Shown: positions 30,715 through 50,385 of the stretch, one piece after another
Position numbering within the stretch: position 1 is the stretch's first letter
How the letters are laid out: each line of letters opens with the position of its first letter
DNA from: an uncultured delta proteobacterium
Lineage (GTDB): Bacteria > Desulfobacterota > WTBG01 > CAIYCZ01 > CAIRTM01
Reading direction: 5' to 3'
Length of the DNA: 64,000 bases
Assembly (NCBI GenBank): GCA_963804955.1
Contig: CAWDSQ010000032.1
Coordinates: forward strand, 32,001 to 96,000
Notes under the pieces: model-generated
Seen by the model: the letters and a program-made list of their open reading frames with translations, nothing else
Database searches by the model: none
Told to the model about the DNA's origin: nothing
Made by a program: the position numbers and the translations under genes

Positions 30715-32500
30715 ATGGAACAAACTACTAACACCAACCAGCCTGCTGAAAATATGCGAGCAGGCAAACAGCGCTTTGATTGACGGCGAAAGCTTCGAAC
30801 AAATGCTGGAAGAAAGTCTGAGTGCGCGCAAGGTGCAGACAGACGAGGTCGCACAGGGACGCATCATTCAGATTACAGCCGATTATGTTATCGTCGATGT
30901 CGGCTGCAAATCCGAAGGACAGATTCCCATCGAGGAATTCAAGGACGCCGACGGCAATATGACCGTTAAAGTAGGCGACAAAGTCGATGTCTTCATTGAA
31001 GGATGGGAGAACGAAACCGGCATGATGCCTCTGTCCAAGGACAAGGCGGATAGAATGCGCGTATGGGACACCGTGAGCAAGGTCTATGACGACGACGGCC
31101 TTATCGAGGGAAAAATCGTGTCCAAGATCAAAGGCGGCCTTGCAGTTGATGTCGGCCTGAAGGCATTTCTGCCCGGCTCGCAGATCGATCTGCATCCGGT
31201 GCGGGATCTCGACAGGCTGATCGGCCAGACCCTTCAGTTCAAAATACTGAAACTGAGCAAAAAACGCGGCAATATCGTGCTTTCCCGCCGCGCAATTCTC
31301 GAAAAAGAGCGTGAAAGCCTTCGATCAGAGACGCTCAAAAACATCGAAGAAGGCTCTATCGTTAAAGGCACGGTCAAGAATATCACCGATTACGGCGTAT
31401 TCATCGATCTTGGCGGTGTAGACGGCCTGCTGCATGTGACCGATATTTCCTGGGGCCGCATCACATCCCCGCGCGATTACTTCAATATCGGTGATGTCAC
31501 CGATGTGAAGATCCTGAGCTTTGACCGCGAGAATCAGCGTGTCGCTCTCGGATTCAAACAGATGAAAACAAACCCCTGGGAGCTTGTTCAGCAGACATAC
31601 GCGATCAATAACCGGGTCAGCGGCAAGGTGGTCAATATCACCAATTACGGGGCATTCATCGAGCTTGAGGAAGGTGTTGAAGGGCTTATTCATATCTCCG
31701 AAATGTCCTGGACGAAAAAGGTCAAGCATCCCTCACAGCTGATCTCAATAGGCGACGTCGTAGAGGCAGTGGTGCTTGATGTCGATGTTGCCAGAAAGCG
31801 CATCTCGCTGGGCCTCAAGCAGCTTGAGCCCAATCCCTGGTCGGTTATCGAAGAGCGGTATCCGGTCGGCACGGTTGTTGAAGGAAAAATCAAAAACATC
31901 ACCGATTTCGGCATATTCATCGGCCTTGATGAAGGCATTGACGGACTTGTCCACATCTCGGATATATCCTGGATACAGAAAATCAAGCATCCTGCCGAGG
32001 TGTATAAAAAAAGCGACATGGTCAAGGCGGTCGTGCTCAGCATTGACAAGGAAAACGAGCGCTTCTCCCTTGGCATCAAGCAGCTTGAGCCCGATCCATG
32101 GGAAGAAGTTCCCAAAAAGTACCGCCGCGGCCAGGTTGTAAAGGGCATGATTACCAATATAACTGATTTTGGAATTTTCCTTGAGATTGAGGAAGGCATC
32201 GAAGGGCTGGTTCATGTATCGGAAATAGCCGAAGACAAAGCCCAGAACCTGAAAGAATTCGCACAAGGTCGGCGAGCCGCTTGAAGTGCTTATTATCAGC
32301 ATAGACAAGCGCAATCGCAAAATCGGTCTCAGCCTTCGCGAACTCCGTCAGGCGCAGGAAGAATTTGCAACTGAAAGGCTATATTGCGCAGCAGGAATCA
32401 AGCCCGAATGCAACACTGGGCGATGTTCTCAGAGCTGCCGCTGAGATGAAGGCACAGGAAGCAAAAGATGAAGAAGCCAAAGCAAGATGCAACAGATTGA
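30715..32500 (+). CDS. rpsA: 30S ribosomal protein S1 (frameshifted at both ends)
   Basis: Repeated S1 domains 'VKNITDYGVFIDLGGVDGLLHVTD', 'EGLIHISEMSW'. Confidence 0.97.
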
Positions 32501-34201: not shown

Positions 34202-35479
34202 TTAAAAGGTTTTCTGCAAATTGCCAACGGTAAACATATCTGCAGGAACATCGATGGTAATTTTCGGCTTATAAAAATAATCCTGGTCGCTGAGGCCGGA
34301 GTGGTTGCGCTGAAAATCCTGAAACTGCGTGCCGACAATAAAGGGTTTTATCTGACCTATCTCTGTCGGCAGGCACGTGTATTATTCATAAAGCACTTCC
34401 AGAACTTGCCGTTTGAATCATACAGTTCAGTCCAGAGAATAATATATGTTTCAGGATCAACATACCAGACTCTCTTGCCGTAAATATAGTTGGGGTCCTT
34501 GCTGATTACATCAACGACAATGGTATTGCAGCGCTCAATAGTTAAGCCGTTCACAAGCCCCTGACCATCCTGGCGGGTCGTGGCCTTCATATCCGTATGC
34601 CTGCTGCACAGCAGGTCTTTTTTACCCTTCAGCGTATAATTATTTCTGGTCAGCTGGCCATCCCACAGATATTCATCATCATAAATAAGGTCGGAACCGT
34701 CGATGGAATCGGTTCGCTGGGCGGTTGACATTCTCCTGATGCGCCGGAACTGGCTGTACCACAGATATGCATCATCTTCTTTTTTAGGATCTTCATAGCG
34801 AATATTGAACATGCGGGTATTTAAAAATTCTGCAGGCTTAAACATATTAAGAAAATACGCGCGATGCATGGCCTTTGGGATTGTCTGCTACTGCAGGCAG
34901 GGGCTCTTTTTCCGTGCGATGCATGAAAAAAAATTCGGTATACTCCTGATCAGCCAGGCGCTCTGTTTTGCTTTTCGGGGTAATATTCGGGCCATATCTG
35001 CGATACTTTGCAGAGTCGCCATGATTATTGAACTCAAAATTATATGCTACCTCAAGGCCGTCTTTCGGCTCAGGGAAAGGGCGGCCGGCAATTGCAGCAT
35101 AATTTGCTATTGTGCCGTCAGGGTTCTTTTTTACCGTGGGCGCGTACTTCTTCGTTGCCTCGCAAAATCCCTTGGTTTCCTTAACCGGCTGATAGGCAAC
35201 AACAGTAAAAAAATTACCCTCAGGGGGTGCGCCCCATTTTTCAGGCTCTTTCAAAAGGCCGACATAGGATTCAGGAATAAAGGCCGCAACCTGGTCGACA
35301 TTTGTTTTGTCGATCTTTTTCCCGACCCAGGTCTTTTCCCACTCTTTGACTTTTGCAAGCTCATCGGGGGTGTACGCAGTACCAATCACTTCCTGTGCTC
35401 CTGCAAGCGCCGGTGCAAGACAAAGCATGAACGCCCCGAGAAGCGGCAAACCAAACATCTGATTCCATCTCTTCCTCAT
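34202..35479 (-). CDS. DUF1329-family exported protein (LolA-like fold; frameshifted)
   Basis: Signal peptide; 'GRPFPEPKDGLEVAYN', 'LWYSQFRRIRR', 'YIYGKRVWYVDPET'. Confidence 0.8.
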
Positions 35480-35524
35480 TACCTGTTCCTCCCAATAAAG
35501 TTTATACTACAAAAACTCTATGAA

Positions 35525-37105
35525 TTAAAATTCATACCGCAGGCGGAAAATCAGGCTGTCCTTATGGGCATACGCATCTCCGACATACTCATTTCTTGGC
35601 GCCGCCATAAAACTTTGCGCCAATATCGGCCCGCCAGTGCTCGCCGGGGAACATATAGGTAAAGCACGGCACGATAAACCATTTCTGGCACATCAGGTTA
35701 TAGTTGCCGTTAAATACAAAAACCCAGGAGGTGTTGAACATTTCCTGCTTTAGAAAACCGGATAGCGGTCTGGGTATAGGGGTCGTCTCTGCGATGATTG
35801 TACCCGACATCGACAACAAGGTCTTCATCCATATTACGGATATACTCGACATAATAGGTTAAGCTGAGATCGGTAAATTTACCTGTGCCGATATGCCTGG
35901 GTCCACCAGGGAATCTCGAACTTGTCATTCCATTGAATCGCCACGCCCAGCATGTCATTCTTGGCCCTGTCATAGACGCCCTGTAATTTACCGTCAGTTC
36001 CCAGGTTGCCCGGATTGTCAAGCATATAGAACCATTCAAGGCGCCATACGGAGTTGTGCAGGGGCTGAATAACCGTCTGGGCCGTGCCGCCGAAGGTCTG
36101 ATAGCGTTTAAAGCGGAAAACATCGCCGCCCTTCCAGGCCTTGCCATTGGCGGGCTTATCAGGTATCAGGCCGACGACATTGGGGAGAGCATAATTGTTG
36201 CCATAGTCAACTGCGCGGTTGGCGTCTGCTATTGGATTGTCGCTCTTTGCATTCCAGTACAGCACGGACCAGTCTATGTCATAGGTATAGCCCTGAACTC
36301 TGAAGCCGAGCTCCCAGTTGTCGGTTGCCCATCCGGTTGGAGCATCGCGCATCCACTTGGACTGCTGCCAGTGGAAGATGCCGTCGGTATCGTACTTGGG
36401 ATTAAATGCGCTCTGGTTATGGGGCGTGCCCCAGTGGGTGCCTTCATAGGGAAGGTACTGCGGCTGATAATAGCCGGGATTGATGATATTCTCAAAAATA
36501 AGATTGCCGGGCAGCGATGACTGATAGGTGGTTCTGATCATCCAGAGGCCCTTCTTGATCTCTTCCCAGTTGTCGACGCCGGGCACGCCCAGGCGCAGGT
36601 CAAGGGGGTTCACGACATCGGCCACGCGCTGCACATCGAGCTGGCCCCAGATGACGATCTGCTTGCCGACGCGCACATCCCATGGGCCCTTCACAAAACT
36701 GACATAGGACTCCGTCACTATATCTTCAAACCTTCTTGGGCTCTGATATTTTTGAATATCATCGTGGGCCATAAACCGGTGGACTTTATCATCATAGGAT
36801 GGCGATGCTTCATACCAGTAGCGCAGGCCGTTGAACCAGGTGATGTTCATTTCGGGTGATTCTTTGAGCTTGTAGATGCTTTCAAAATACAGTGAGGTTT
36901 GAGCAAAATCGACTCGAGAATCGTGATACTTTTCCTCCCCCTTGTCCCAGCTGGTCCGGTAATAAACAGTCTCCTTGGCAAAGCCGCTTATCTCGAGCCT
37001 GCCGTCAAGAAACTGCTCCGATGCCAGCGCAGGCCTGCCGGTGCACATCAGTATGCACGCGCAGACTGCAAACGAGCAGAGTGCTGCTATGAAGCTTTTC
37101 CTCAT
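35525..37105 (-). CDS. DUF1302-family outer-membrane beta-barrel (frameshifted)
   Basis: Signal peptide; 'RVGKQIVIWG...DVVNPLDL'; repaired C-terminus ends 'LIFRLRYEF' (terminal-Phe beta-signal). Confidence 0.8.
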
Positions 37106-37280
37106 GTTCCCTCCTTTTTCGAAAAATTAATCTTACAAGCCTATTACTTTTTCGTAAAATTTTGTTGAAAAAGTACCACACCAAAAAAAGGAATTCAATG
37201 ATTATCTAAACATTTTTACATTAAAATTTGAGCGCCATCTTTCTTCTTTCCTGCACCTACACGGGACTTCATGCCCGATT

Positions 37281-37313
37281 TAAAAAAAGCCCCCTGCCGT
37301 GAACAGGGGGCTT
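37281..37313 (-). terminator. Intrinsic terminator after the RND gene
   Basis: aaaaaaagccccctg-ccgtgaa-cagggggctt. Confidence 0.75.
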
Positions 37314-37350
37314 GAAGGATCAATCTGACATTACGGCGTTATCCTGCACA

Positions 37351-39848
37351 TTATCCCCTGTCGCTGCGCGCAATGCCCTTTGGCTTAAAGAGCGCTACGA
37401 AGGCAGGAACAACATAGATCGTAGCAATCATGCTGCACAGCCCCATGATGATGAAAAGATTGCAGGTTACGGACAGCGGGCATAAAATGCGGCAGCGTAA
37501 AAGGTCCAAGAACATAAATAAATCCCACCAGTATGCTCATGGCAATATACATGACTCGCTTTGCCGGTCGTGCTCATGGCATCGGCTATGGCCTGGTCCC
37601 AGGATTTGCTGGCCGCATAGCCTGCAGCGATGCGGTTCAGCATATACAGCACACCGCAGACAAAGAGACTGTAGCCGATCATGATATACGGCAGTGTTTC
37701 AACCGTCAGAGGTGCCGTATTGGGCATGGACGAATACTTAAAGGTCATTGATGCGGCAAACAGCAGCGGCAGCAGCGAGATGTAAGCCGACCAGGCAACG
37801 AGCCGAAACGCACGGCTATTATGGCAGTGATTGCAAGAGTGGCGAAAATAAAAGTCCAGAAAAAATACATCCGGACACAATCGTTAACATCTGCCTGAAT
37901 GCCGATCGCGCCTGCGCCGATGCGGTAATACATATGCGGAAACTTATCGACCTGCGGTTTTTCAGGCAGCAGCGGCTCGGGCTTAGAGATCATGCTGTCA
38001 AGGCTGCGCATGAATGTGTCAGGATACTGCTCATCGCTCTGGCGGATGCCGAAGCGGGACTGCATGGGTTATGTACTCGCGGATCCGCTGCATGAGCGGT
38101 TTGATAACGCTTTCGGTTTTATCCCGGCAGTAAATATACATGCACAGGGCTTTATGATCCTCGTCGATGAATTTGTCCATGGCGCCGGGAGCCGCCATAT
38201 TGACGGTACTGCCAAACTGCATTTGAACCTGACCGTCGACGGCTGGCACAAATGTCCAGTTCGGATCGTTTTCATGGAGTCCGCGACCGCGTGCGGGCAT
38301 TGTCTGGTGCGCAAACACAGGGGCTGCCACAATGGGCCCCATTTTAGGATCCATGGGTGTGCGGCTCAGATACCGGCAGAATTCCATGGAGTCGCGCAGC
38401 ATGGCCGGATTATTCTCTAGCGCCATCTGTTCAGCGCCTTGCGCAATGATCAGCATCGGCGTTAAAAGCGAAAATCCAGCAAAACTCATACGGAATGCAT
38501 CCATATTGTAGCGGTGCCAGGGCAGCAGCGTCGAGTGAGCCGGGAGACGCATTGCCGTAGAAAATTTTATTCATGGAGGCAAGCCCCATGATCGTGCCAA
38601 GCAGGATGATGACGATAACGGCGTATTTGCCCCAGCCGCAGATCCAGCGTGCCGAGCGCTTCATGAATTTGGCTTCTTTGGATTTCTGCGGCGCAACCGG
38701 CATGTAGGTCAGCAGCGCAGGTACAAAACCGACGGCGATGATAAACGAAGCAAAAGCCCAGAAAATACCCGACAGGAATAATGGACGCAGACCCGGCAGG
38801 GGCGCAAGCGCGACCAGCGCAAGGCAGATGGCCGCAATAAGCATTGCCGTGGCGCAGGGGCCGTACAGCCCGATAATCGTGGCCTTTGCCGCCTTTATGG
38901 CATCAGAGCCTGCGGCACGTTCAGCGGCAAATCGCTTGATGAAAAATACGGCATTGGCCACTGCTATCATCGAGATAAACAGCGGCAGCGCAAACAGCGC
39001 GGGATCGAGATTGAATTTAAAGAAACCGAGGAAGCCAAGCCCCCAGATCGAACTAAGAATGCCCGGCCAGGACGGCAATAATAGCACCCTTCACGTCCCG
39101 AAGCGACAGAAACAGGATAATAAAAATCAGCACCACCGAAAGCGCGATCATTTTAAGCACAGAAGGTATCATGGATTTTATAAAGCCCTTTTCCACGGGC
39201 AGACTGTTGATCAGCACCCTGATATTCTTGTTTTCATATTTTCTGCGCAGATCCTGCAGCTTTTGAAAAATATCATCATAGTCAGCCTTTCCCTCCAGAA
39301 AGTCGGCCATTATGAGCGTTGTTTTGCTGTCAAAAGAAACAAGCACGGGATAGGGAATACCCTCATACACTTTTAAGCGGAGGTCATCCATCTCTGCCGG
39401 GTGTCTTGGGCAGGTCCGGAAACATGATGGAATTCATTTTCATACCGAAAGACGATATCTGAATGTCCTTCAGCTTGGAGGAGTACAGGTCGAACATCTT
39501 GTTGCGGTCCATACCGGGAAACAAATCAGGATTCCTCAAATCAGTATCGATGTCTTTCACCATCTGGAGCGTTTCATGATTAAAAATATCATCATAGGCG
39601 CCGCCATCCTCCTTATCGCGGACCTGCAGCGCAATATACAGCAGATTGGTGCCCCCGAATATTTTTCTGGCTTCGTCTTCAAGCTTGATATTGGGATAGC
39701 CTTCTGGCCGCAGGCCGGCGTCGATGGATTTAAAGCTCAGGCCGGTCGCAGCGGCAATCAGGAAAACAACCGTGAGAACGAAAATGCCCAGCACAACGGC
39801 CAGCCTTTTTTCTATAATAAAATCAGCAAAACGATTTTTCATGGTCAT
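37351..39848 (-). CDS. RND/MMPL-family transporter (many frameshifts)
   Basis: Two repeats of TM + periplasmic loop ('IFGGTNLLYI') + multi-TM bundle across ORFs 39384-39905, 39053-39391, 38431-39087, 38031-38552, 37745-38065, 37467-37880. Confidence 0.75.
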
Positions 39849-39874
39849 AAACCCCTTTCTGAAAAGGATGGGAA

Positions 39875-41019
39875 TTAATACTGTTCCGGTAAAGACTTTC
39901 GCCAAAGGGCGCCAAACAAATTGAACGGCTTGAAAATTTTATCGGTGACATCTTTTGCCACGGGAAAATCCTTGACCGTGTAATAAATGCCCGCCCGGAA
40001 TTTCCAGGTCTTGCCGCCATCATCTGTGAGCACAATGGTATCGCTGGCTCCCACGGCAATGCCTTTATTGGGATTGATGAAAGCAATATCCCGCAGCCAC
40101 CAGCCGGTTTTGATAGCACCATCCTGAATTTTCCAGGACTTGCCGCCGTCATTGGACATAAACAGGGAGCCGCGGTCGCCGACCGCCCATCCTTTAGTTG
40201 CCTTTTATGAACAGGCTGTACACGCCGAGATTTTTCTCAGCCGTAAAGCTTTCCCAGGTGGCGCCGGCATCGGCGCTGTACAGAAACAGGGAATCCATCC
40301 CGCAGGCGACAAAGGTCGTTTTATCTTTTGCAATGATTCCATAGAGCGATTGGCGGGGTTTTTCAATTTCTTCATCAATGCTGGCCCGCTCAAATATCTT
40401 CGGCTGGATACTGGTCCAGGTCTTGCCGCCATCGACGGTTCTGAACATGGTGCCTGTCTCGCCGACGACAACACCGGTATTCTGGTCCACAAAAGCGACA
40501 TTGTTCAGAGTCTTGTCCTGCTCCTGGCCCTGCACGGACCAGGTGGCGCCGCCGTCCTGCGTATGAAGAATCAGGCCCATTTCACCGACAGCCCAGCCCA
40601 GCTTTTCATTCAAGAAAACAAATACCGAACAGATGTTTATCGGTATTTGTTTTTTGCTTTACCCAGGTTGCGCCGCCATCGCTTGTATGCAGCATGATGC
40701 CGCTGATACCGGCAACCCAGCCTACTTTGGCATTGAGAAAAACGCCGTCGACCAAGAAGACTGTTGACGCCTGAATTTTGCGCATTCCCAGGTTTCTCCT
40801 GCATCAGAAGAATGATAGATGACTCCGTAATTGCCGACCACCCAGATGTTTTTATCATCAGGGCGCAATCACGCCATGAAGATTCTCTTTAGTGACAGTC
40901 TTTACCGGCGGTTCCGGCTTGGCTGCGGCCTGCTCCGCAGCACCAGACCAACTGCTGATGCAAAACCCTAGCATGCACATGGTTGCCAATAAAACCCCAA
41001 GTCTCCATAGCTTCTTCAT
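39875..41019 (-). CDS. YCF48-like BNR/Asp-box beta-propeller exported protein (frameshifted)
   Basis: Start MKKLWRLGVLLATMCML; repeats TQDGGATW, TVDGGKTW, SADAGATW, SNDGGKSW, TDDGGKTW. Confidence 0.85.
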
Positions 41020-41250
41020 CCATCCTTCTCCTTTATATTATTATGAAAATAATAAAATTAGATGAACCCATAGCTAACATCTACGCAGGGTACGCACAGC
41101 ATTAAAAGATTAGAAAAAAGCTTAACGGGATTATTATGTGTTGTTAAATACAACTTACTATCAGGGTACTGACATCGTCATATGCGTAGAAAAAAAGGGC
41201 TTGTTTTGTTTAAGCCCTGTTCACTTAAGGTCCCACATATTTTGCAGACA

Positions 41251-41314
41251 AAATTTTCTTGACAGAAAGTTGGTCATAGTTTATCTGTTTAGGAATCGTA
41301 AGTCAAGAAAATTT
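41251..41314. promoter_or_regulatory. Bidirectional promoter bounded by a perfect 13-bp inverted repeat
   Basis: aaattttcttgac (41251-41263)/gtcaagaaaattt (41302-41314); minus TTGACT-17-TAAACT; plus TTGACA at 41259. Confidence 0.65.
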
Positions 41315-41373
41315 AGGGCAATTCAGCCCAAATAAAATTGAACCATTCGCAAGATTACAGCTAGGAGGAAACA

Positions 41374-42736
41374 GTGAAAAGTGCATATGATCTTATAGTC
41401 GTCGGAGCCGGGCCTGCTGGACTGACCGCAGCCAAAATCGCAGCTGAAAACGGTCTTTCAGTTGCTCTGCTGGAAAGAAAAAACTCGGTTGAAGAGATCC
41501 TGAGAATGTGCGGCATGATGATTGTGTCGCTTTCCGGATCATACATGGGTGAACGCGTCGTTCTCAATGAAGATGCAGGGCTTCTCTGCTTCCCCAACAA
41601 CGGCTTCAGCGTAAAGTATGACGGCCCGACCAAGGACTTCTACACCTGGCAAATGTATTCGCCCAATGGCGAAATGTTCACTTTTGGAAATTATGCAGCC
41701 AATCTCGCAAAGGGCAAGGAAGGCCGTGCAAGCGCCGTATATGACAAAAGCTGGTTTCTGGCCGGCCTGCTCTCAGAGTGCAAAAAGCTGGGCGTCCAGG
41801 TGTTTACCGGTGAAAACGTCATTGATGTCCGCAAAAAGGCTGAGGGCGTTGAAGTGCAGACCGCCAGCGGCAAACATTTCACCGGCGCATTTGCCATTGC
41901 CGCCGACGGCCGCAATTCGCGGGTAGCCCGGGTTATGGGCATGAATAAAAACCGCGACTTTTACGGCTCCGTCACCTCGATCGGCTATGAAATGACCAAC
42001 CTGAATCTTCCTGAGCCCTATGCGCTGCATATGCCCCTTGTGCAGAGCGGCGATCCGCCCATGCTCGGCTTTATTTGCCCCAGGGCCTGGGACAATGAGG
42101 GTGAATACACCTGGCTGGTCATGATAACCAATGTCGATCCCAATACCGACCATGAAAGCCTTTTTGACCTGTTTACCCAGAAAAGCCGTTATGCCTCCTG
42201 GTTCAAGGGCGGCAAAAAGGTTCGCAAATGCGGCTGCGCCGGGAATATGTACTCGCCAATTATTCACCCTTTTAAAGACAATGTAATTTTTGCCGGTGAT
42301 TCGGGATGGTGCCAGGAAGCTGAAATGACCGGAGCAGTGATGAGCGGCTGGAAGGCAGGCAGCGCTGTCGTTCTTGCCATGCTTGAAGGCAAGCTCAATC
42401 AGCAGGGCGTACAAACATATCTTGACTGGTGGCGCACACGCCCATATCGAAAAGTGCGATTACAAAGTATTCCTGAAGAATCTCTATATGCCGGTGCTGT
42501 GCAACGACAAGGAAATCGACTACATCTTCAGCAAAATCAATTTCGTGCTTCCGACCGTCCTTGACCCGTATGAAGTGCCCGAAAACATTGGCAAAGCTTT
42601 GATGAAGATCATGCCCGACATCCAGAAAGAGCGCCCCGATCTGATTAAAAAAATGGCCGGGTTCAATGACCTGCCTCCTGAAGTCGTTCTGAAAAAAACC
42701 ATTCGTTCGGGATTCAACTGCAGCTTTACGACGTGA
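41374..42736 (+). CDS. Geranylgeranyl-reductase/FixC-family FAD oxidoreductase (frameshift near 42440)
   Basis: 'YDLIVVGAGPAG', 'LLERK', 'IAADGRNS', 'FAGDSG'. Confidence 0.85.
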
Positions 42737-42764
42737 TGATCAGACACTTTTAAATATTATATTG

Positions 42765-42809
42765 AAGCGTTCGGACGGCTACATGAAACCGTGCGAACGC
42801 TTTTATTTT
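42765..42809 (+). terminator. Intrinsic terminator
   Basis: aagcgttcg.acgg...ccgt.cgaacgctt followed by T-rich tail. Confidence 0.65.
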
Positions 42810-42854
42810 ACTGTTTGTCATTCGACCTAACACCACAGAAAAGGGAGAGGAACT

Positions 42855-43994
42855 ATGAAGCAAAACCGTATGGCTTTTATGATGGCGGCACTTTTGCTGG
42901 TAGTGTGCTGCGCCAGCACGGCACTGTCTGCCGAACCGAAAAAAGGTCTCCTTGTCTATGACTCTATTTACAGTTCAACGCCTGAAGTAGCCTACTGGCT
43001 CAAGGCCATCATCGGCAATGAACAGCCCCTTGATGTCAAAAAAATCGATCAGGTCATCACCGTCAAGCCCTATGATTACGTGATCATCGGCAGCTACTCC
43101 AAATGGGAAAAAGCATCCCCCCGCATTTACAAATTCATTGAAAAGAACCAGATGGAACTTGCCCAGAAGCAGGTCTGCTACTTCCTGCTCGGCGGCGACT
43201 GGGATGAAACCATGCTGCTGAAGGCTCCCGGGGCGCCGATTAAACTGATTGCGGGCAGAAACTATCTATTCGATATCAAGGAAAAATTCCCGAGTATCAA
43301 GCCGATCGTCATCGGCGGCTTCGGCGGCCGGCAGGTGATGCCCTCACTGAACGGACAGGACGGATTCATGATCTGGGTGCTGGAGCGCCTGTCACGCGAG
43401 GGCGCTCACTGGGTCGGCCTCGATATCTGGGAATCCCTGGTGCCCGCCCGTGTTGAAGTGTACGGCAATGAAATACGCACGAAGATCCTCGGCCTGGAGC
43501 CCCTGCCGCCTGCAGAGGTGCAGAAGTACCGCGGGTTCTGGAATTCGCTGCAGCCCGCATCGCTTGCCGATCCTTCAAAAGTCAAAACGACAAACCTGAT
43601 CTCAAAAGACAACGGCGAAACCTGGGTTCCCGTCGCCGAGCGGCCCTACACTCTTAAGCTCAGCTCAAAAAAATCATACTACTCGCGCTCAAGAATCAAG
43701 GCCGATCTGCCCACAACCGCCAAGCTTCTGGCCGAGTGGGCGAAAAAAGACGGCTTTGAGCTGAAGGAAGAACGGAAGGCCGACTACATGACCTGGTACA
43801 CGGCCAGTAAAAAGGTTGATGGCAAGGATGCCACTCTTTCTATCGTCATGGCCACCATGCCCGACGATCCGGGCAATGTGCACGTTTCCTTCCGGTCCTG
43901 GGAAAAACCGGAAAAGCGCAAGGCTCTTGAAGAATCGGCAGCCAAAGCCGAGCAGTTTATCTGGGCCGACGGCAGAAAGGTCGAAGGCAGATAA
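42855..43994 (+). CDS. Exported protein with HemG-type (Flavodoxin_5) domain and unknown C-terminal region
   Basis: Sec-type signal (…STALSA|EP); 'LLVYDSIYSSTPEVA', 'YDYVIIGS', 'FGGR'; one Asp-box 'SKDNGETW'. Confidence 0.7.
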   Translation: MKQNRMAFMMAALLLVVCCASTALSAEPKKGLLVYDSIYSSTPEVAYWLKAIIGNEQPLDVKKIDQVITVKPYDYVIIGSYSKWEKASPRIYKFIEKNQMELAQKQVCYFLLGGDWDETMLLKAPGAPIKLIAGRNYLFDIKEKFPSIKPIVIGGFGGRQVMPSLNGQDGFMIWVLERLSREGAHWVGLDIWESLVPARVEVYGNEIRTKILGLEPLPPAEVQKYRGFWNSLQPASLADPSKVKTTNLISKDNGETWVPVAERPYTLKLSSKKSYYSRSRIKADLPTTAKLLAEWAKKDGFELKEERKADYMTWYTASKKVDGKDATLSIVMATMPDDPGNVHVSFRSWEKPEKRKALEESAAKAEQFIWADGRKVEGR

Positions 43995-44020
43995 CCAGGC
44001 ACTGCACTGCAGAATGTGAC

Positions 44021-44053
44021 AAGAGGCAGGCGCATGTCCTGCCTCTTTTTTTT
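44021..44053 (+). terminator. Intrinsic terminator
   Basis: aagaggcagg-cgcatgt-cctgcctctt followed by a T-run. Confidence 0.75.
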
Positions 44054-44081
44054 CAAACAACCTTAGCAGGGAGGCAAATCC

Positions 44082-44861
44082 TTGAAGATAATAAAAATTC
44101 TCCTGTGGATCATAGCGGTGCTTGTTCTGATTATCGCAGCAATCGCCATCAGCACCCGGCTGGAGGGCGACAAGCAGTATGCGAAATACGCCGGAGCAAC
44201 CGCCCAAGCCCTCAAAGCTTTTCCTCTCAAACCCTATGAGGTCACAGAAAAGTACCGGCATGTCAGATCGCTGCCGCTCATGGACATATCGGTTTCCAGC
44301 AGCACCGGCGACCGCCTCGCCCGGGTAAATTCACTGGATGCCACGATGCTGATGTTTATGAAAATGTATACCCTCATGATCAGGCCGAGCTATGACTATA
44401 ATCTGCCCGTCATGTCTGTGGATTTCATTTTTCTGCCCTTTGGTAAAAGAATATATATAATTGAAATAATAGATCCGGCAAAAATTGATGACACAAACAA
44501 AAAAATCTTTTACGAAAAAATGAAAGCGCACTATGCCCGGGTAGCGGACTTTCCTTCAGCAGGAACCCGCGATTGGTATAAAGACTTTGTCACCGACTTC
44601 AGTATTCACAGTAAGGCAGACAGGAAGGATGATGCTCTGCTCCTGGAAGTCTACAAAACCTATCTCGAAGCCTACCTTGCAATGGCCCAAAATGCTCAAA
44701 AACTTCCTCCTGAAACCAGCCTCAAAATGAAGGAAGGCCTTGAAAAATATGTCTCAACCCTTCTCTCTCAGGGCGGACCGGCAGTGGATGTTTTTAAGAA
44801 AATTCTTGGCCCGGAAGGGCAGAAGGAATATGTGCGGACGGTTATGTTCGGGCTTGACTGA
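44082..44861 (+). CDS. Membrane-anchored protein with ferredoxin-dependent bilin reductase (PcyA/PebA/HY2/RCCR) fold
   Basis: N-terminal TM; 'IRPSYDYNLPVMSVDF', 'YKTYLEAYL', 'GGPAVDVFKKILGPEGQKEYVRTVMF' match the FDBR motif pattern. Confidence 0.65.
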   Translation: MKIIKILLWIIAVLVLIIAAIAISTRLEGDKQYAKYAGATAQALKAFPLKPYEVTEKYRHVRSLPLMDISVSSSTGDRLARVNSLDATMLMFMKMYTLMIRPSYDYNLPVMSVDFIFLPFGKRIYIIEIIDPAKIDDTNKKIFYEKMKAHYARVADFPSAGTRDWYKDFVTDFSIHSKADRKDDALLLEVYKTYLEAYLAMAQNAQKLPPETSLKMKEGLEKYVSTLLSQGGPAVDVFKKILGPEGQKEYVRTVMFGLD

Positions 44862-44884
44862 AAGTCGGCAGCAGGACAAGCTCT

Positions 44885-44920
44885 AAGCCGGAAGCACTTT
44901 CACGGTGCTTCCGGCTTTTC
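44885..44920. terminator. Bidirectional terminator hairpin overlapping the nitroreductase stop
   Basis: aagccggaagcac-tttcacg-gtgcttccggctt. Confidence 0.75.
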
Positions 44921-45705
44921 TTGTGTATGCCCGTATTTTAGAAATATTTCTTTAACGGCTTCTTCGGCTGCAACCATTTTCTGCTCATAATAAGCAATCT
45001 GCCGGTCAAAGCTCGACAGCGGATGAGTGAGTTTATAGCCGATAAACATCTGCTCGTGCCAGTCTTTTAACCGGGCGCCGGCGGTGCGGTCATAGTGTTT
45101 CTGCATAATAACCGCCTGCCGGGGCTGCCGGGGCGGAATACCGGGCATGTTCATGCCGGCCCTGCCCAGCACCAGCGTTGTCAGCGGCAGCACACCTTCA
45201 GGAAGCCCGAGCTTGTCCCTGAGATATGCTGCTGTCAAGCAGCCCTGCCCTGCCCGTCTCCGACAGCATAATGCTTCTGATACCCAGGGCCTCTGCAGCC
45301 ATATTCATGCTCATGGCAGCAAGTCCGGCATTGAAAATTGCGAGGCTCAAATTCACAAAAGGGGTATTCCTGAATTCAGGCAAAAAAGAATTCAGGCGGA
45401 ATATATCAGCGCAAATGAGTGACTGCATAGGCTCCTTTAAACGGTATGGGCCGGTCAAAGATCTCATGCCACTGCTCTTGTGTGAAAGTTATGAATGACC
45501 AGGTCTGGAGATTTACCGTACTGGGGGCAAACCGGCCCGCCTCAAGTATGGCCTGAATCTCCTCATCGCGCAGAGGCTCATCGCTGAATGACCGGCAGCT
45601 GCGGCGGGCAAATAAAAGCCGGATCGTCTCAGGAACCTCATGCAGGAGAGCTGCAGCGGGTTTCCCGGTAAAAAGAGTCGCAAAATTCCGCAGCCAATTC
45701 AGCAT
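44900..45705 (-). CDS. Nitroreductase-family flavoprotein (NfsA-like; two frameshifts)
   Basis: 'RRSCRSF', 'APSTVNLQTW', 'AAEALGIRS', 'LGLPEGVLPLTTLVLG'. Confidence 0.85.
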
Positions 45706-47695: not shown

Positions 47696-48385
47696 TTATT
47701 GTTTTGCCGATGCGCCCTGTCCCGATGCTGCCTGCTGCCCGGATTTTTTTTCGGAAATATCCATTCCCTCCTTTGCTTTCAGCTTATCGATAAGGGTTTG
47801 AAAAGAACCGTTGGCAAAAATCTCATTAAACTGTGTGCGGTAGTTGGCCACAAGCCCGACGCCTTCAATGGTAAGATCATAGACTACCCATCTGCCGTTT
47901 TTATTTATGAGCTTATAGTTGAGGGGCAGTTCCTTGTCATTGAGCAGAATCTTTGTCTCAACCAGGGCATAGCGCTCCTGCTCGATGGATTCGTGAAGAT
48001 AGGATATGTTTTTTACTGTAAAATCTTTCGACTCCTGCAAAAAGAGATCTATCTTTGAAATATAGGTGCGCTCAAGAAAATCGACAAAAATATCGATAAA
48101 CTGCTTCTGCTGCTCCGGGGTTATGTCGCGCCAGTGAGGGCCGAGGGTGCGCCGGGCCATTTCCTCCCAGTCAAATGTGCCTGAGGCAGTTTCATGAATC
48201 AGCCTGTTGCGCTCAGTTTTCTTCTCAGGCGCGGCATAGGCAGGATCTTTCAGCACTGTCAGGACCTTGTCCACAACCAGCTTGAGATTGTCGGTTATCT
48301 GCCCGGCTGAGGCAGACGATCCCAGATAAAAAAACACCGTCAGCGCTGCAACCGCTATGCGCATTCCCGCTCCTGCATGCTTCAT
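47696..48385 (-). CDS. mlaC: MlaC/Ttg2D phospholipid-binding protein
   Basis: 'FDWEEMARRTLG..W', 'VYDLTIEGVGLVANYRTQF'. Confidence 0.92.
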   Translation of the reverse strand: MKHAGAGMRIAVAALTVFFYLGSSASAGQITDNLKLVVDKVLTVLKDPAYAAPEKKTERNRLIHETASGTFDWEEMARRTLGPHWRDITPEQQKQFIDIFVDFLERTYISKIDLFLQESKDFTVKNISYLHESIEQERYALVETKILLNDKELPLNYKLINKNGRWVVYDLTIEGVGLVANYRTQFNEIFANGSFQTLIDKLKAKEGMDISEKKSGQQAASGQGASAKQ

Positions 48386-48408
48386 GATATCTTTCCTCCA
48401 GCTGTGTC

Positions 48409-48849
48409 TTACACTTTTCCAAAAACAAACTTGGAAATAAGCTCTTCAATATCAACGGGCGGCTGTGTTTCACGAATCCTATCCCCGGTTTTCAGTATGA
48501 CATCGGAGCCTCCCGGAACGATATCAATATACTTCTCGCCCAACAGCCCCTTTGTTTTGATGCGGGCTATGGCATCTTCCTGCAGCTGCACAGTCCCGGT
48601 AACCGACAGCACGACTTTAGCCTTATAATTATCAAGGGCTATCTGCTTCACCCTGCCGATTTGAACTCCTGCTATTTCCACAAGAGCGCCGTTTTTAAGC
48701 CCGCTTATTGTGGGAAAGACCGCGGAGACCTCATACCCGTTAGATCCCATCACTTCCATCTTTGCATACCTGATTGACATATAGCCAAGACAGGCGATGC
48801 CGGCCAGTATAAAAAGGCCCACAACAAGTTCAAGAGTTCCTCTGCGCAT
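48409..48849 (-). CDS. mlaD: MCE-domain protein MlaD
   Basis: 'GLKNGALVEIAGVQIGRV', 'TKGLLGEKYI'. Confidence 0.95.
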   Translation of the reverse strand: MRRGTLELVVGLFILAGIACLGYMSIRYAKMEVMGSNGYEVSAVFPTISGLKNGALVEIAGVQIGRVKQIALDNYKAKVVLSVTGTVQLQEDAIARIKTKGLLGEKYIDIVPGGSDVILKTGDRIRETQPPVDIEELISKFVFGKV

Positions 48850-48861
48850 ACCTGTTCTCCT

Positions 48862-49608
48862 TTATACGTAGTGAAGCGGTCCCTCAATGCTTCCTGATAA
48901 AAACTGCTGAAATGCGGGATTGCCCTGGCCGACTATTTCATCATAGGTTCCGTTAATGATGATACGGCCTTCATCCATCATGGCGATCTTCTGCACGATG
49001 CTGAACACGCGCGGAACATCATGAGTGACGATGATGCCGGTGAATCCCAGCCGGCGGTGGCACAGCTGAATGTAGTTGAGAATGCTCTGGCCGATAATGG
49101 GATCAAGCCCTGTGGTCGGCTCGTCGAACAGCATAATGGACGGCTGCATGATCATGGCGCGCGCCAGGGATGTGCGCTTGCGCATGCCGCCGCTGAGCTC
49201 AGCCGGATACTTGTGAGCATCATTCTTCAATCCCATATGCTCAAGCTCGGGAAAAACGCGGTCCCTGATTTCCGCCTCCTTCATAGCCGTCTTCTCCCGC
49301 AAGGGAAAGGCCACATTCTCAAAGACCGTCATAGAGTCGAACAAAGCGCCTTCCTGAAACAAATATCCGAATTTTTGCCGTATGGCTACCAGTTGCCTGC
49401 CGCGAAGGCTGCATATATTCTGATCATCGACAAAAATTTCGCCTTTATCGGGCTGCATAAGGCCGATGATATGCTTGAGCAGCACGCTTTTGCCAAGGCC
49501 GCTGCGGCCGATAAGAGCAAACATCTCGCCTTCGCGTATCTCAAGGTTCAGGCCTTTGAGAACCTGGTTGCCATTAAAGCTTTTGTATGCGTCACGAACG
49601 GTGATCAT
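48862..49608 (-). CDS. mlaF: Mla ABC ATPase
   Basis: GRSGLGKS, 'FQEGALFDSM', 'LSGGMRKR'. Confidence 0.95.
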   Translation of the reverse strand: MITVRDAYKSFNGNQVLKGLNLEIREGEMFALIGRSGLGKSVLLKHIIGLMQPDKGEIFVDDQNICSLRGRQLVAIRQKFGYLFQEGALFDSMTVFENVAFPLREKTAMKEAEIRDRVFPELEHMGLKNDAHKYPAELSGGMRKRTSLARAMIMQPSIMLFDEPTTGLDPIIGQSILNYIQLCHRRLGFTGIIVTHDVPRVFSIVQKIAMMDEGRIIINGTYDEIVGQGNPAFQQFLSGSIEGPLHYV

Positions 49609-49611
49609 TGT

Positions 49612-50385
49612 TTAAAGCGAAATTGACGTTATAAAATAATCCCATACAAGAATCAGCACGGAAGATATGACCACGGACTCTGTTGTGGCCTTGCCAACGC
49701 CCTTGGCTCCGAATTCAGTAAAATAGCCCTTGTAGCAGCAGACCCACGAGACAATCAGGCCAAAGCTCAAAGACTTAGTTATCCCCATGGTGATATCCTT
49801 CATGTCGACAAAATTGCTCATTTCTCCGAAATAGGTGCCCTCGCTCACCCCAAGCAGCTTCACGCCGACAAGGTAGCCGCCCCAGATGCCGATCATGCTG
49901 AAAAATGCCCCCAGCAGGGGAAATGAAATAACCGCTGCAACCATATTGGGAACAACAAGATACCGGTAGGGATTAACCGCCATTATTTCCAGGGCATCGA
50001 TCTGCTCGGTGATGCGCATAATGCCGATTTCCGAGGCGAGCGCTGATCCTGCGCGGCCGGTTATCATGAGAGCCGATATCACCGGCCCGAGTTCGCGAAG
50101 AAGGGAAAGGGCAACTGTGGGCCCGAGCAGTGCTTCTCCGCCGAACTTGCTCAGGGCATAAAAAACCTGCAGCGCAAAGACCATGCCGGTAAAAGCGCCG
50201 GTCAGCAGCACAATGACCGTTGACTTGACGCCGATGAAGGTAATCTGCTCGAGCACCCGCTTGAATTTAAGCGGCGAGCCGAAAAGCCAGAAAAGCGCTG
50301 TCAGCAGAAACATGCCATAGGAGCCGAGCATTTCCAGCACACCCAGCACACCACGGCCTAATCCTCTGATACAGGAAATAAACAC
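49612..50385 (-). CDS. mlaE: Mla ABC permease
   Basis: 'RELGPV', 'GRAGS', 'MRITEQIDALE', 'GVGKATT'. Confidence 0.95.
   Translation of the reverse strand: MFISCIRGLGRGVLGVLEMLGSYGMFLLTALFWLFGSPLKFKRVLEQITFIGVKSTVIVLLTGAFTGMVFALQVFYALSKFGGEALLGPTVALSLLRELGPVISALMITGRAGSALASEIGIMRITEQIDALEIMAVNPYRYLVVPNMVAAVISFPLLGAFFSMIGIWGGYLVGVKLLGVSEGTYFGEMSNFVDMKDITMGITKSLSFGLIVSWVCCYKGYFTEFGAKGVGKATTESVVISSVLILVWDYFITSISL

Follow-up and report, generated by a model that had tools for sequence, protein, structure and literature searches.

A conserved linkage between an AmeABCD-type transporter module and three reductase-like folds in uncultured delta-proteobacteria

Background

Why should a bacterium with no sign of phototrophy keep a protein of the bilin-reductase fold, and why should its gene lie beside a transporter module of the kind associated with hydrophobic compounds? 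The question is raised by a locus in the genome of an uncultured delta proteobacterium (4.26 Mb in 36 contigs, completeness 87%). We analysed a stretch of 64,000 nucleotides, C32:32001-96000, which we call the window. It contains two divergent blocks of genes. The leftward block encodes a DUF1329 protein, a DUF1302 protein, a divergent, probably HAE3-type RND transporter and a YCF48-like propeller. The rightward block encodes a geranylgeranyl reductase-like (GGR-like) flavin adenine dinucleotide (FAD) enzyme, a flavodoxin-fold protein with a signal peptide, and a PF05996 protein with the fold of the ferredoxin-dependent bilin reductases (FDBRs). An earlier note, made from the sequence without database searches, had proposed that these blocks import and reduce bilins, chlorophyll catabolites or a similar lipophilic compound.

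The two blocks do belong together; their linkage is a real, conserved unit. What the unit does is a harder question. We tentatively favour the idea that the locus is one functional unit, in which an AmeABCD-type module and the GGR-like, flavodoxin-like and FDBR-like trio would reduce a hydrophobic conjugated compound at the envelope, although we hold this with somewhat less than even confidence. The answer matters for two reasons. The FDBR-like protein belongs to a distinct branch of its fold with a predicted membrane anchor, tied to flavodoxin-fold, GGR-like and transporter partners in a host with no sign of phototrophy or of heme oxygenase. If these proteins are enzymes, sediments would be home to a new anaerobic chemistry that reduces pigments or other conjugated lipids, and the DUF1302/DUF1329/YCF48/RND modules, which are poorly understood, would gain a concrete biochemical partner.

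Conservation of the linkage

A profile of the FDBR-like protein led to 31 loci in 25 public genomes, and their gene content was compared by clustering open reading frames (ORFs) and by tblastn. Nearly all of the genomes are labelled as uncultured Thermodesulfobacteriota or delta-proteobacterial metagenome-assembled genomes, and six have two copies. The earlier note had named, as the case that would tell against its proposal, homologues of the reductase genes lying in unrelated neighbourhoods. This is not what we found. The flavodoxin-like gene is present at 26 of the 31 loci, and in 22 it lies no more than 250 bp upstream on the same strand. The GGR-like gene is present at 20, with an orthologue directly upstream in 18, and ten loci have a TetR-family gene upstream of it (Pfam); one such regulator gene among the relatives is L025:6700-7374. 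At least one DUF1329, DUF1302, RND or YCF48 gene is found at 15 of the 31. Transporter genes are present at 10 of the 14 loci having at least 7 kb on both sides. Their position relative to the FDBR-like gene varies:

Transporter genes divergent: L005, L006, L007, L009, L010, L017, L030, L031, L033 and the window
Transporter genes co-directional, downstream of the FDBR-like gene: L024, L025, L027
Transporter genes upstream, ending at the FDBR-like gene: L026
DUF1302/DUF1329 pairs only, on both sides: L018
DUF1329 fragment at the upstream contig edge: L019

Linkage that is kept through rearrangement argues for function. We also considered chance synteny, and reject it in view of the counts over the 31 loci and of the several arrangements. 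We found no description in the literature of a linkage between a bilin reductase and DUF1329, including for PF05996.

The same comparison removes one gene from the proposal. The earlier note had counted a convergent nitroreductase gene with the locus. It occurs at only 4 of the 31 loci, each time with the housekeeping gene HPRT, so it is probably a syntenic neighbour kept by descent and we reject it as a component.

Two other kinds of gene were seen at these loci. Aldehyde:ferredoxin oxidoreductase genes lie 2-8 kb from the FDBR-like gene at 5 of the 31 (L007, L008, L011, L029, L034), and also at two paralogue loci of the window's genome (L044, L046). An Rce1-like membrane protein of the CAAX-protease family is encoded after the FDBR-like gene at L017:10785-11504 and L032:1710-2402.

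The locus in the window

Pfam searches of the window's ORFs found the folds that the earlier note had named, all of them where it had placed them. The gene spans below come from tblastn of the window with intact orthologues from relatives.

34205-35479, minus strand: DUF1329/LolA-like periplasmic protein (AmeB-like), with signal peptide; PF07044, 77.2 and 46.3 bits, cut-off 23
35528-37105, minus strand: DUF1302 outer-membrane protein (AmeA-like), with signal peptide, frameshifted; PF06980, 57.3 bits, cut-off 23
37357-39848, minus strand: divergent, probably HAE3-type RND inner-membrane transporter (AmeD-like); weak MMPL/ACR_tran fragment matches, six tblastn pieces
39878-41019, minus strand: YCF48-like BNR beta-propeller (AmeC-like), exported, several frameshifts; PSII_BNR, 57.5 and 31.9 bits, cut-off 27
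41020-41373, no strand: divergent intergenic region between the blocks, the gap between tblastn gene spans
41374-42736, plus strand: GGR-like FAD-dependent reductase; FAD Rossmann Pfam matches, two tblastn pieces
42855-43994, plus strand: exported two-domain flavodoxin-like protein; Flavodoxin_5 PF12724, 40.1 bits, cut-off 27
44021-44047, plus strand: terminator-like hairpin and T-run in the gap between the flavodoxin-like and FDBR-like genes; 10-pair stem, 6 GC pairs
44082-44861, plus strand: FDBR-fold protein with N-terminal hydrophobic anchor, 259 amino acids, intact; PF05996, 55.4 bits, cut-off 31
44885-44917, plus strand: strong hairpin between the convergent FDBR-like and nitroreductase genes; 14-pair stem, 8 GC pairs
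44903-45705, minus strand: nitroreductase-family gene, frameshifted; PF00881, 52.2 bits, three frame pieces

The earlier note had described the rightward genes as separated by terminators. This is half right: a hairpin with a T-run does stand between the flavodoxin-like and FDBR-like genes, but the gap from the GGR-like to the flavodoxin-like gene has none. Over the whole region we count 7 terminator-like sites against 5.5 in shuffles, a total that is not above the shuffles. Promoter-like hexamers at 41306-41278 and 41567-41538, both on the minus strand, are mere consensus matches.

The FDBR-like protein

Judged by predicted structure and by profiles, the assignment of the FDBR fold is secure. 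The AlphaFold2 model has a predicted local distance difference test score (pLDDT) of 95.4. Its top Foldseek matches are PebB, PcyA, HY2 and PebA (6qx6, 2g18, 6kmd, 2x9o), with probability 1.0, TM 0.70-0.73 and 15-18% identity, and TM to RCCR is about 0.62. A profile of the family searched against the PDB finds PebB (E 1.7e-12) and PcyA (E 2.8e-9), with PebA and HY2 also matched. The bilin-reductase fold that the earlier note had called is upheld both by the PF05996 score and by this match of the alpha/beta/alpha sandwich.

D114 is invariant in 90 sequences and aligns, at alignment level only, with the Asp of G-C-D-L-V in PcyA, G-V-D-L-L in PebA and G-L-D-L-V in PebB. The catalytic Asp is Asp105 in Synechocystis PcyA (PMC10151467). 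Four central strands carry conserved polar pairs spaced i/i+2 (D86+T88, S112+D114, E128+I130, S174+H176). This pairing fits a constrained pocket face, and in the model that face of the sheet looks like an active site.

All 90 members have a hydrophobic, uncharged N-terminal stretch of 19-27 amino acids. The charge bias of its flanks only weakly favours an orientation with the N-terminus in and the C-terminus out. The FDBR-like protein is likely, on present evidence, to be periplasmic.

Could this simply be ordinary bilin biosynthesis, in which biliverdin is turned into a phytobilin that serves a photoreceptor or a bilin-binding globin, on the pattern of the pre-PcyA clusters? The PF05996 score above the gathering threshold, the fold matches and the retained central Asp all point that way, and pre-PcyA enzymes do occur in heterotrophs (PMC10151467, in part). 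The rest of the evidence points elsewhere. According to that source, the neighbours of pre-PcyA FDBRs in heterotrophs are genes for heme oxygenase, Fe-S, V4R and globin proteins, and the context here has none of these; nor did we find heme oxygenase anywhere in the genome at its 87% completeness. The window's protein has a predicted N-terminal membrane anchor. Its best score against the NCBIfam FDBR equivalogs (PcyA, PebA, PebB) is 48.7 bits against a cut-off of 283, and none of 125 of the best 150 representatives (short fragments left out) passes an equivalog cut-off, although two match at E<=1e-20. The genome also has eight to ten copies of PF05996. We therefore find ordinary bilin biosynthesis scarcely credible here. 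To our knowledge, a linear tetrapyrrole is the substrate of every characterised member of the FDBR/RCCR fold, whether it works in phototrophs, on their behalf or within a pre-PcyA cluster, and the FDBR enzymes are cofactor-less in every relative we know of.

The FDBR-like protein is better described as a separate, uncharacterised family. A scan of 1.84 billion representatives gave 390 at E<=1e-3, 144 at E<=1e-10 and 23 at E<=1e-30. Among the 120 listed of 167 relatives, lengths run from 179 to 303 amino acids, most being 259-270, and those that have a name are called 'hypothetical protein', except the JGI row P0118, which is named 15,16-dihydrobiliverdin:ferredoxin oxidoreductase. The ESM Atlas clusters have 'hypothetical protein' only. 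A FastTree phylogeny, midpoint rooted and subject to long-branch caveats, places the window family in a group of 33 rows (support 98), apart from a clade with P0245, which is closest to PebA, and P0221. These two are the NCBIfam FDBR matches at E<=1e-20, and their clade includes the soluble paralogues of the window's genome.

The flavodoxin-like protein and the GGR-like enzyme

The flavodoxin-like protein has 379 amino acids (AlphaFold2 pLDDT 83.7), with a flavodoxin fold at about residues 27-215 and a small alpha/beta C-terminal domain at about 245-377. By VIA-align its N-terminal domain matches the Megasphaera elsdenii flavodoxin 2fz5 (Z 14.2, root-mean-square deviation 2.1 A, 129 residues aligned) and the heme-bound FldH 8g64 (Z 14.1, 3.4 A, 162/169 residues, the longest coverage). 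The earlier note had called the protein HemG-type. The Pfam match to Flavodoxin_5 agrees with this as far as the fold goes, but the HemG equivalog NF008316 scores 22.2 bits, far under its cut-off of 142.

FldH/HmuF of Fusobacterium nucleatum belong to the flavodoxin superfamily, bind heme, and reduce the linear tetrapyrrole anaerobilin by hydride transfer (PMC10404700, in part). They offer a precedent for a flavodoxin-fold protein that reduces a linear tetrapyrrole directly, and the window's protein resembles them in adding further elements to a flavodoxin core. For this protein the precedent is a lead at fold level only: identity to FldH is 12% with no match at sequence level, the Z-score of FldH is tied with those of ordinary flavodoxins, and a signal peptide and an extra C-terminal domain set the window's protein apart.

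A signal-like N-terminus ending in small residues is found in 22 of 25 flavodoxin-like relatives. A conserved D-S-I-Y-G-S-T motif (the window copy has S for G) aligns, at a weak E of 0.14-0.8, with G-T-Q-T-G-V-T of PDB flavodoxins, which we take to be their flavin mononucleotide (FMN) phosphate loop. The fold of the C-terminal domain is ambiguous, with EagT6, PA94 and DcrB as Foldseek matches and KA1 domains at Z of about 12.0 by VIA-align. Modelling of the two proteins as a complex, the flavodoxin-like one in its mature form and the FDBR-like one as its domain, with FMN added, gave no verdict (score 0.01, mark 0.32).

The GGR-like enzyme has 453 amino acids when intact and no signal peptide. 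The earlier note had placed it in the GGR family. TIGR02032 is indeed its best NCBIfam match, but the score falls under the cut-off (73.2 against 158.8 bits for the intact orthologue L006:7263-8621), so the family label is an approximate one. Like geranylgeranyl reductases, among them the archaeal DGGGPL reductases and ChlP/BchP, it has an N-terminal FAD Rossmann motif; across 17 relatives G11, G13, G16 and R44 are invariant and C46 nearly so. C46 may correspond to the conserved Cys near the flavin that has a functional role in the GGR family. Unlike the reference family of TIGR02032, this one has a conserved C-terminal extension of about 100 residues and is represented by about 17 paralogues in the one genome.

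It could be argued that the FDBR-fold and flavodoxin-fold proteins are not enzymes at all, but redox-dead ligand shuttles, periplasmic or in the membrane, that serve the transporter beside the LolA-like DUF1329 protein. The second FDBR proton donor is missing, and Sec export makes the loading of FMN doubtful. The fold can be non-enzymatic, since the Ycf2-FtsHi motor has an FDBR-fold protein as a structural subunit (8xqw and 8xks are among the Foldseek matches), and the C-terminal domain of the flavodoxin-like protein resembles the small binding modules just named. However, invariant D86, D114, E128 and H176 on the face of the sheet would be unexpected in a carrier of greasy ligands. The motif aligned with the phosphate loop is conserved across 25 flavodoxin-like sequences, and both genes are tightly linked to the gene of a bona fide flavoenzyme. 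We regard non-catalytic carriers as improbable.

The transporter module

Is the leftward block a known kind of system? According to PMC6394551, the tetrapartite HAE3-RND system AmeABCD of Castellaniella defragrans combines an RND protein with DUF1302, LolA-like DUF1329 and COG4447/YCF48-like propeller proteins. The block in the window has DUF1302, DUF1329 and propeller genes and, probably, an RND gene of the same kind, all contiguous, and both systems are associated with hydrophobic compounds. The DUF1302, DUF1329 and YCF48-like genes are encoded together and score above Pfam cut-offs in the window and in the intact L005 orthologues; the intact YCF48-like orthologue reaches 194 bits (PSII_BNR).

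The RND protein is harder to place. The earlier note had called it RND/MMPL. Fragments in the window fall under the Pfam cut-offs and the intact orthologue L005:3223-5703 has no Pfam match, so the call rests instead on kinship with a paralogue of the same genome, to which that orthologue is 29% identical over its full length (E 6e-120) and which scores 118.8 bits for MMPL and 189.5 for HAE3. The best NCBIfam match of the window-type protein is also HAE3 (TIGR00921, 42.5 bits against a cut-off of 351.9). By these comparisons the pump is probably a divergent HAE3-type RND.

Relative to its MMPL-positive paralogue, the window-type protein (L005:3223-5703, residues about 588-625) has an insertion of about 38 residues in the second periplasmic region.

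Besides an RND too divergent for any Pfam match, two things distinguish the module from AmeABCD. The gene order of the latter, from A to D, is DUF1302, DUF1329, propeller, RND (PMC6394551, in part), where here it is YCF48-RND-DUF1302-DUF1329 in the direction of transcription. The module here is also linked to the FDBR-like, flavodoxin-like and GGR-like genes, a link not reported in the available parts of PMC6394551 or of bioRxiv 10.1101/072470.

The most serious objection to our reading concerns direction. The RND protein might pump outward, either a toxic lipophile or a reduced lipid, quinone or pigment of the cell's own, which the GGR-like enzyme would help to make, so that the locus would serve export, tolerance or envelope building. 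The exported flavodoxin-like and FDBR-like proteins would then modify or chaperone the cargo toward the outer membrane. Cells in which AmeABCD was deleted tolerate monoterpenes less well and accumulate more Nile Red, from which the authors infer export, and the characterised HAE3 members named in the available part of that paper are hopanoid exporters (PMC6394551). For cofit DUF1302/DUF1329/BNR/RND clusters in Shewanella and Pseudomonas, the same four-gene set, 'export of a cell wall component' was proposed (bioRxiv 10.1101/072470, in part). The window's cluster stands among housekeeping genes beside an Mla lipid-transport operon, and 10 of the 31 loci have the TetR gene described above. TetR regulators are typical of efflux operons.

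Other facts fit export less well. Mutants in the Pseudomonas putida module fail to grow normally on fatty esters, with a growth defect on Tween 20 and butyl stearate in fitness data, which is compatible with a role of the module in substrate use. The window's cluster has no biosynthetic core genes. The window's genome holds six four-gene transporter modules, about 17 GGR-like genes, three flavodoxin-like genes and eight PF05996 genes above cut-off with two more partial matches, and catabolic-type neighbours such as aldehyde:ferredoxin oxidoreductase, thiolase, acyl-CoA ligase and electron-transfer flavoprotein. So many modules, GGR-like and PF05996 genes beside catabolic genes look more like substrate diversity than like one envelope lipid. 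On balance we think this reading unlikely, but it deserves to be taken seriously.

Paralogues and lineage

The earlier note had supposed a non-photosynthetic anaerobe, and the genome agrees with it. At 87% completeness there is no type-II reaction centre or DsrA above cut-off, no PF01126 match that would signal heme oxygenase, and no HutW/HmuW-type gene above cut-off (best 152.8 against 400 bits). No endogenous source of a linear tetrapyrrole was thus found.

Among 301 sampled genomes of the phylum, PF05996 scores above cut-off in the window's genome (G000), in all 7 others sampled from its family and in both genomes of the sister family; the remaining 291 give a single weak match. Each positive genome (G000 and its relatives G074, G108, G141, G172, G202, G232, G261, G035 and G289) has at least 6-9 scored copies. 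DUF1329, by contrast, is found in 112 of the 301. The expansion of PF05996 is restricted to this lineage among the genomes sampled. Of the 45 PF05996 hits scored in five relatives, 14 have a DUF1329 gene no more than about 12 kb away. A rough estimate puts the number expected by chance at about 4, and the genomes, being kin, are not independent.

The PF05996 paralogues of the window's genome described here are soluble and keep the D-P-G motif, unlike the window's protein. Four of them lie within a few kb of three further modules (C5, C14 and two on C7), accompanied by PNPOx-like, NmrA-like and PadR genes; paralogues also adjoin FMN_red and GGR-like genes. Biliverdin or anaerobilin reductases are found in both the PNPOx-like and the NmrA-like family.

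Several of these places are worth recording. At L045 (G000:C14:208000-227000) and L046 (G000:C5:89000-108000) the module is followed by FDBR-like, PNPOx-like and NAD_binding_10/NmrA-like genes, and a 286-residue neighbour at L045 has a sub-threshold PCP_red (protochlorophyllide-reductase) match of 24.7 against 32.5 bits. The most canonical-looking PF05996 gene, encoding a soluble protein (115 bits), is L043:9102-10813 (G000:C22, about 17.1-18.8 kb). An FMN_red gene follows it directly, which makes L043 a second pair of an FDBR and a flavoprotein, FMN_red having a flavodoxin-like fold. At L047:8599-9585 (G000:C20, about 76.6-77.6 kb) a 329-residue fusion protein has a 2x[4Fe-4S] ferredoxin domain at its N-terminus (Fer4 53.6 bits) followed by an FDBR-like one (PF05996 48.3 bits), and its gene adjoins TetR, GGR-like, SDR, MarR and DUF1329 genes. 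The fusion hints at a redox function for the FDBR-like proteins of this genome, with electrons drawn from Fe-S centres. A NuoEFG-like and GGR-like operon is found at L049.

Frameshifts in the window copy

We compared the window with three relatives, L006, L005 and L004. The four transporter genes, about 6.8 kb in all, have at least 14 single-base insertions, each against both L006 and L005. They include 34868 in the DUF1329 gene, which tblastn with the L006 orthologue recovers in three pieces in frames -1/-2/-1; 35595, 35765 and 35893 in the DUF1302 gene; and 40197, 40611, 40752, 40787 and 40861 in the YCF48-like gene. The GGR-like gene has one insertion, at 42438, and the nitroreductase gene at least two. 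None is found in the flavodoxin-like and FDBR-like genes in this comparison.

Is the transporter block then a decaying pseudogene cluster, and the system non-working in this genome? The density of insertions speaks for it, as do the whole state of the flavodoxin-like and FDBR-like genes and of the adjacent Era and Mla ORFs. But every frame-breaking indel against both relatives is a +1 insertion, and the fragments keep 85-95% amino-acid identity to L006, where genuine decay would be expected to add deletions and substitutions. The same style of fragmentation is seen elsewhere in the genome, in genes for aldehyde:ferredoxin oxidoreductase, thiolase, an AMP-ligase and other RND and DUF1302 copies. 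Among the matches listed, relatives' contigs from public runs (mostly 90-99% alike) are missing the inserted bases at 35596 and 35893 in X1, X2 and X4, and at 35766 in X1 and X4. The frameshifts look like assembly errors. Their pattern is uneven and spares the adjoining Era and Mla genes, so real decay stays as a minor rival, one that we consider quite improbable.

Proposed function

We can now say what the favoured reading would involve. The transporter module would hold and move an external hydrophobic compound with conjugated double bonds within the envelope. The FDBR-like protein would reduce it at the membrane or periplasmic face, using the retained central Asp as proton donor. The flavodoxin-like protein would supply the electrons or hydride, or act as a second reductase, and the GGR-like flavoenzyme would reduce further double bonds in the cytoplasm. 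The cell would gain an electron sink or a product that it can assimilate, and in many relatives a TetR-type regulator would control the reductase operon. That four-gene modules are tied by experiment to monoterpenes (PMC6394551, in part), Tween 20 and butyl stearate supports a hydrophobic substrate.

A good deal weighs against this. No transporter gene is found at 16 of the 31 loci, four of which have at least 7 kb on both sides, and in the DNA fetched the flavodoxin-like gene is absent from 5 and the GGR-like gene from 11. Only 14 of the 45 scored PF05996 hits in the relatives lie near DUF1329 genes. In this assembly the transporter genes are broken by the insertions described above, and a hairpin with a T-run parts the flavodoxin-like gene from the FDBR-like gene. 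The one homologous module that has been genetically dissected, AmeABCD, behaves as an exporter (PMC6394551, in part), and our results lend no support to import, the direction put forward in the earlier note, over export.

The proteins themselves raise further difficulties. Three of the 25 flavodoxin-like relatives, all paralogues, have no signal peptide. In the alignment no twin-arginine motif is visible in the signal peptides, so FMN would need to be loaded outside the cytoplasm. Such loading is unusual. The second proton donor of PebA, PebB and PebS is a C-terminal Asp. In the FDBR-like protein it is absent, the D-P of PebA/PebB aligning with G-P of the invariant G-G-P-A-V, and by alignment the columns of PcyA His88 and Glu76 hold Thr/Tyr and Leu, with a one-residue shift possible at this divergence. 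The topology is not clear-cut either: the net charge of the N-terminal flank of the hydrophobic stretch exceeds that of the C-terminal flank in 53 of the 90 members, equals it in 15 and is lower in 22, and the median number of K+R is 2 on its N-terminal side and 3 on its C-terminal side.

How far can the substrate be narrowed? The FDBR fold, the resemblance to FldH and the bilin-related families around the paralogues lend some weight to the idea of a tetrapyrrole, which by analogy of folds may be the class concerned. In the strongest form of the idea, an uncultured order of sediment Thermodesulfobacteriota would have made the FDBR fold into a large toolkit of at least 6-9 genes per genome. One branch, moved to the outer face of the cytoplasmic membrane, would act with the exported FldH-like protein and the Ame-type module to reduce exogenous linear tetrapyrroles or chlorophyll breakdown products. 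The substrates might be phycobilins or red-catabolite-like or anaerobilin-like compounds raining into anoxic sediment. If true, the cell would have a route of 'bilin respiration or scavenging' outside the cytoplasm and independent of ferredoxin, which provides an electron sink or a nutrient. We think so specific a pathway improbable.

Flanking genes and habitat

Housekeeping genes flank the cluster: those for ribosomal protein S1 and SppA at one end, and those for HPRT, Era and MlaC/D/F/E at the other end. The MlaC-MlaD-MlaF-MlaE phospholipid transport operon is intact, at window positions 47696-50385 on the minus strand, just past Era. The ORF of ribosomal protein S1 (window 30776-32284) has 502 amino acids against 584-604 in homologues that are 97-99% identical; its start is probably cut by another assembly frameshift. 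In public runs, small word shares of up to 0.17 in freshwater, sediment and hot-spring metagenomes give no more than a hint of habitat.

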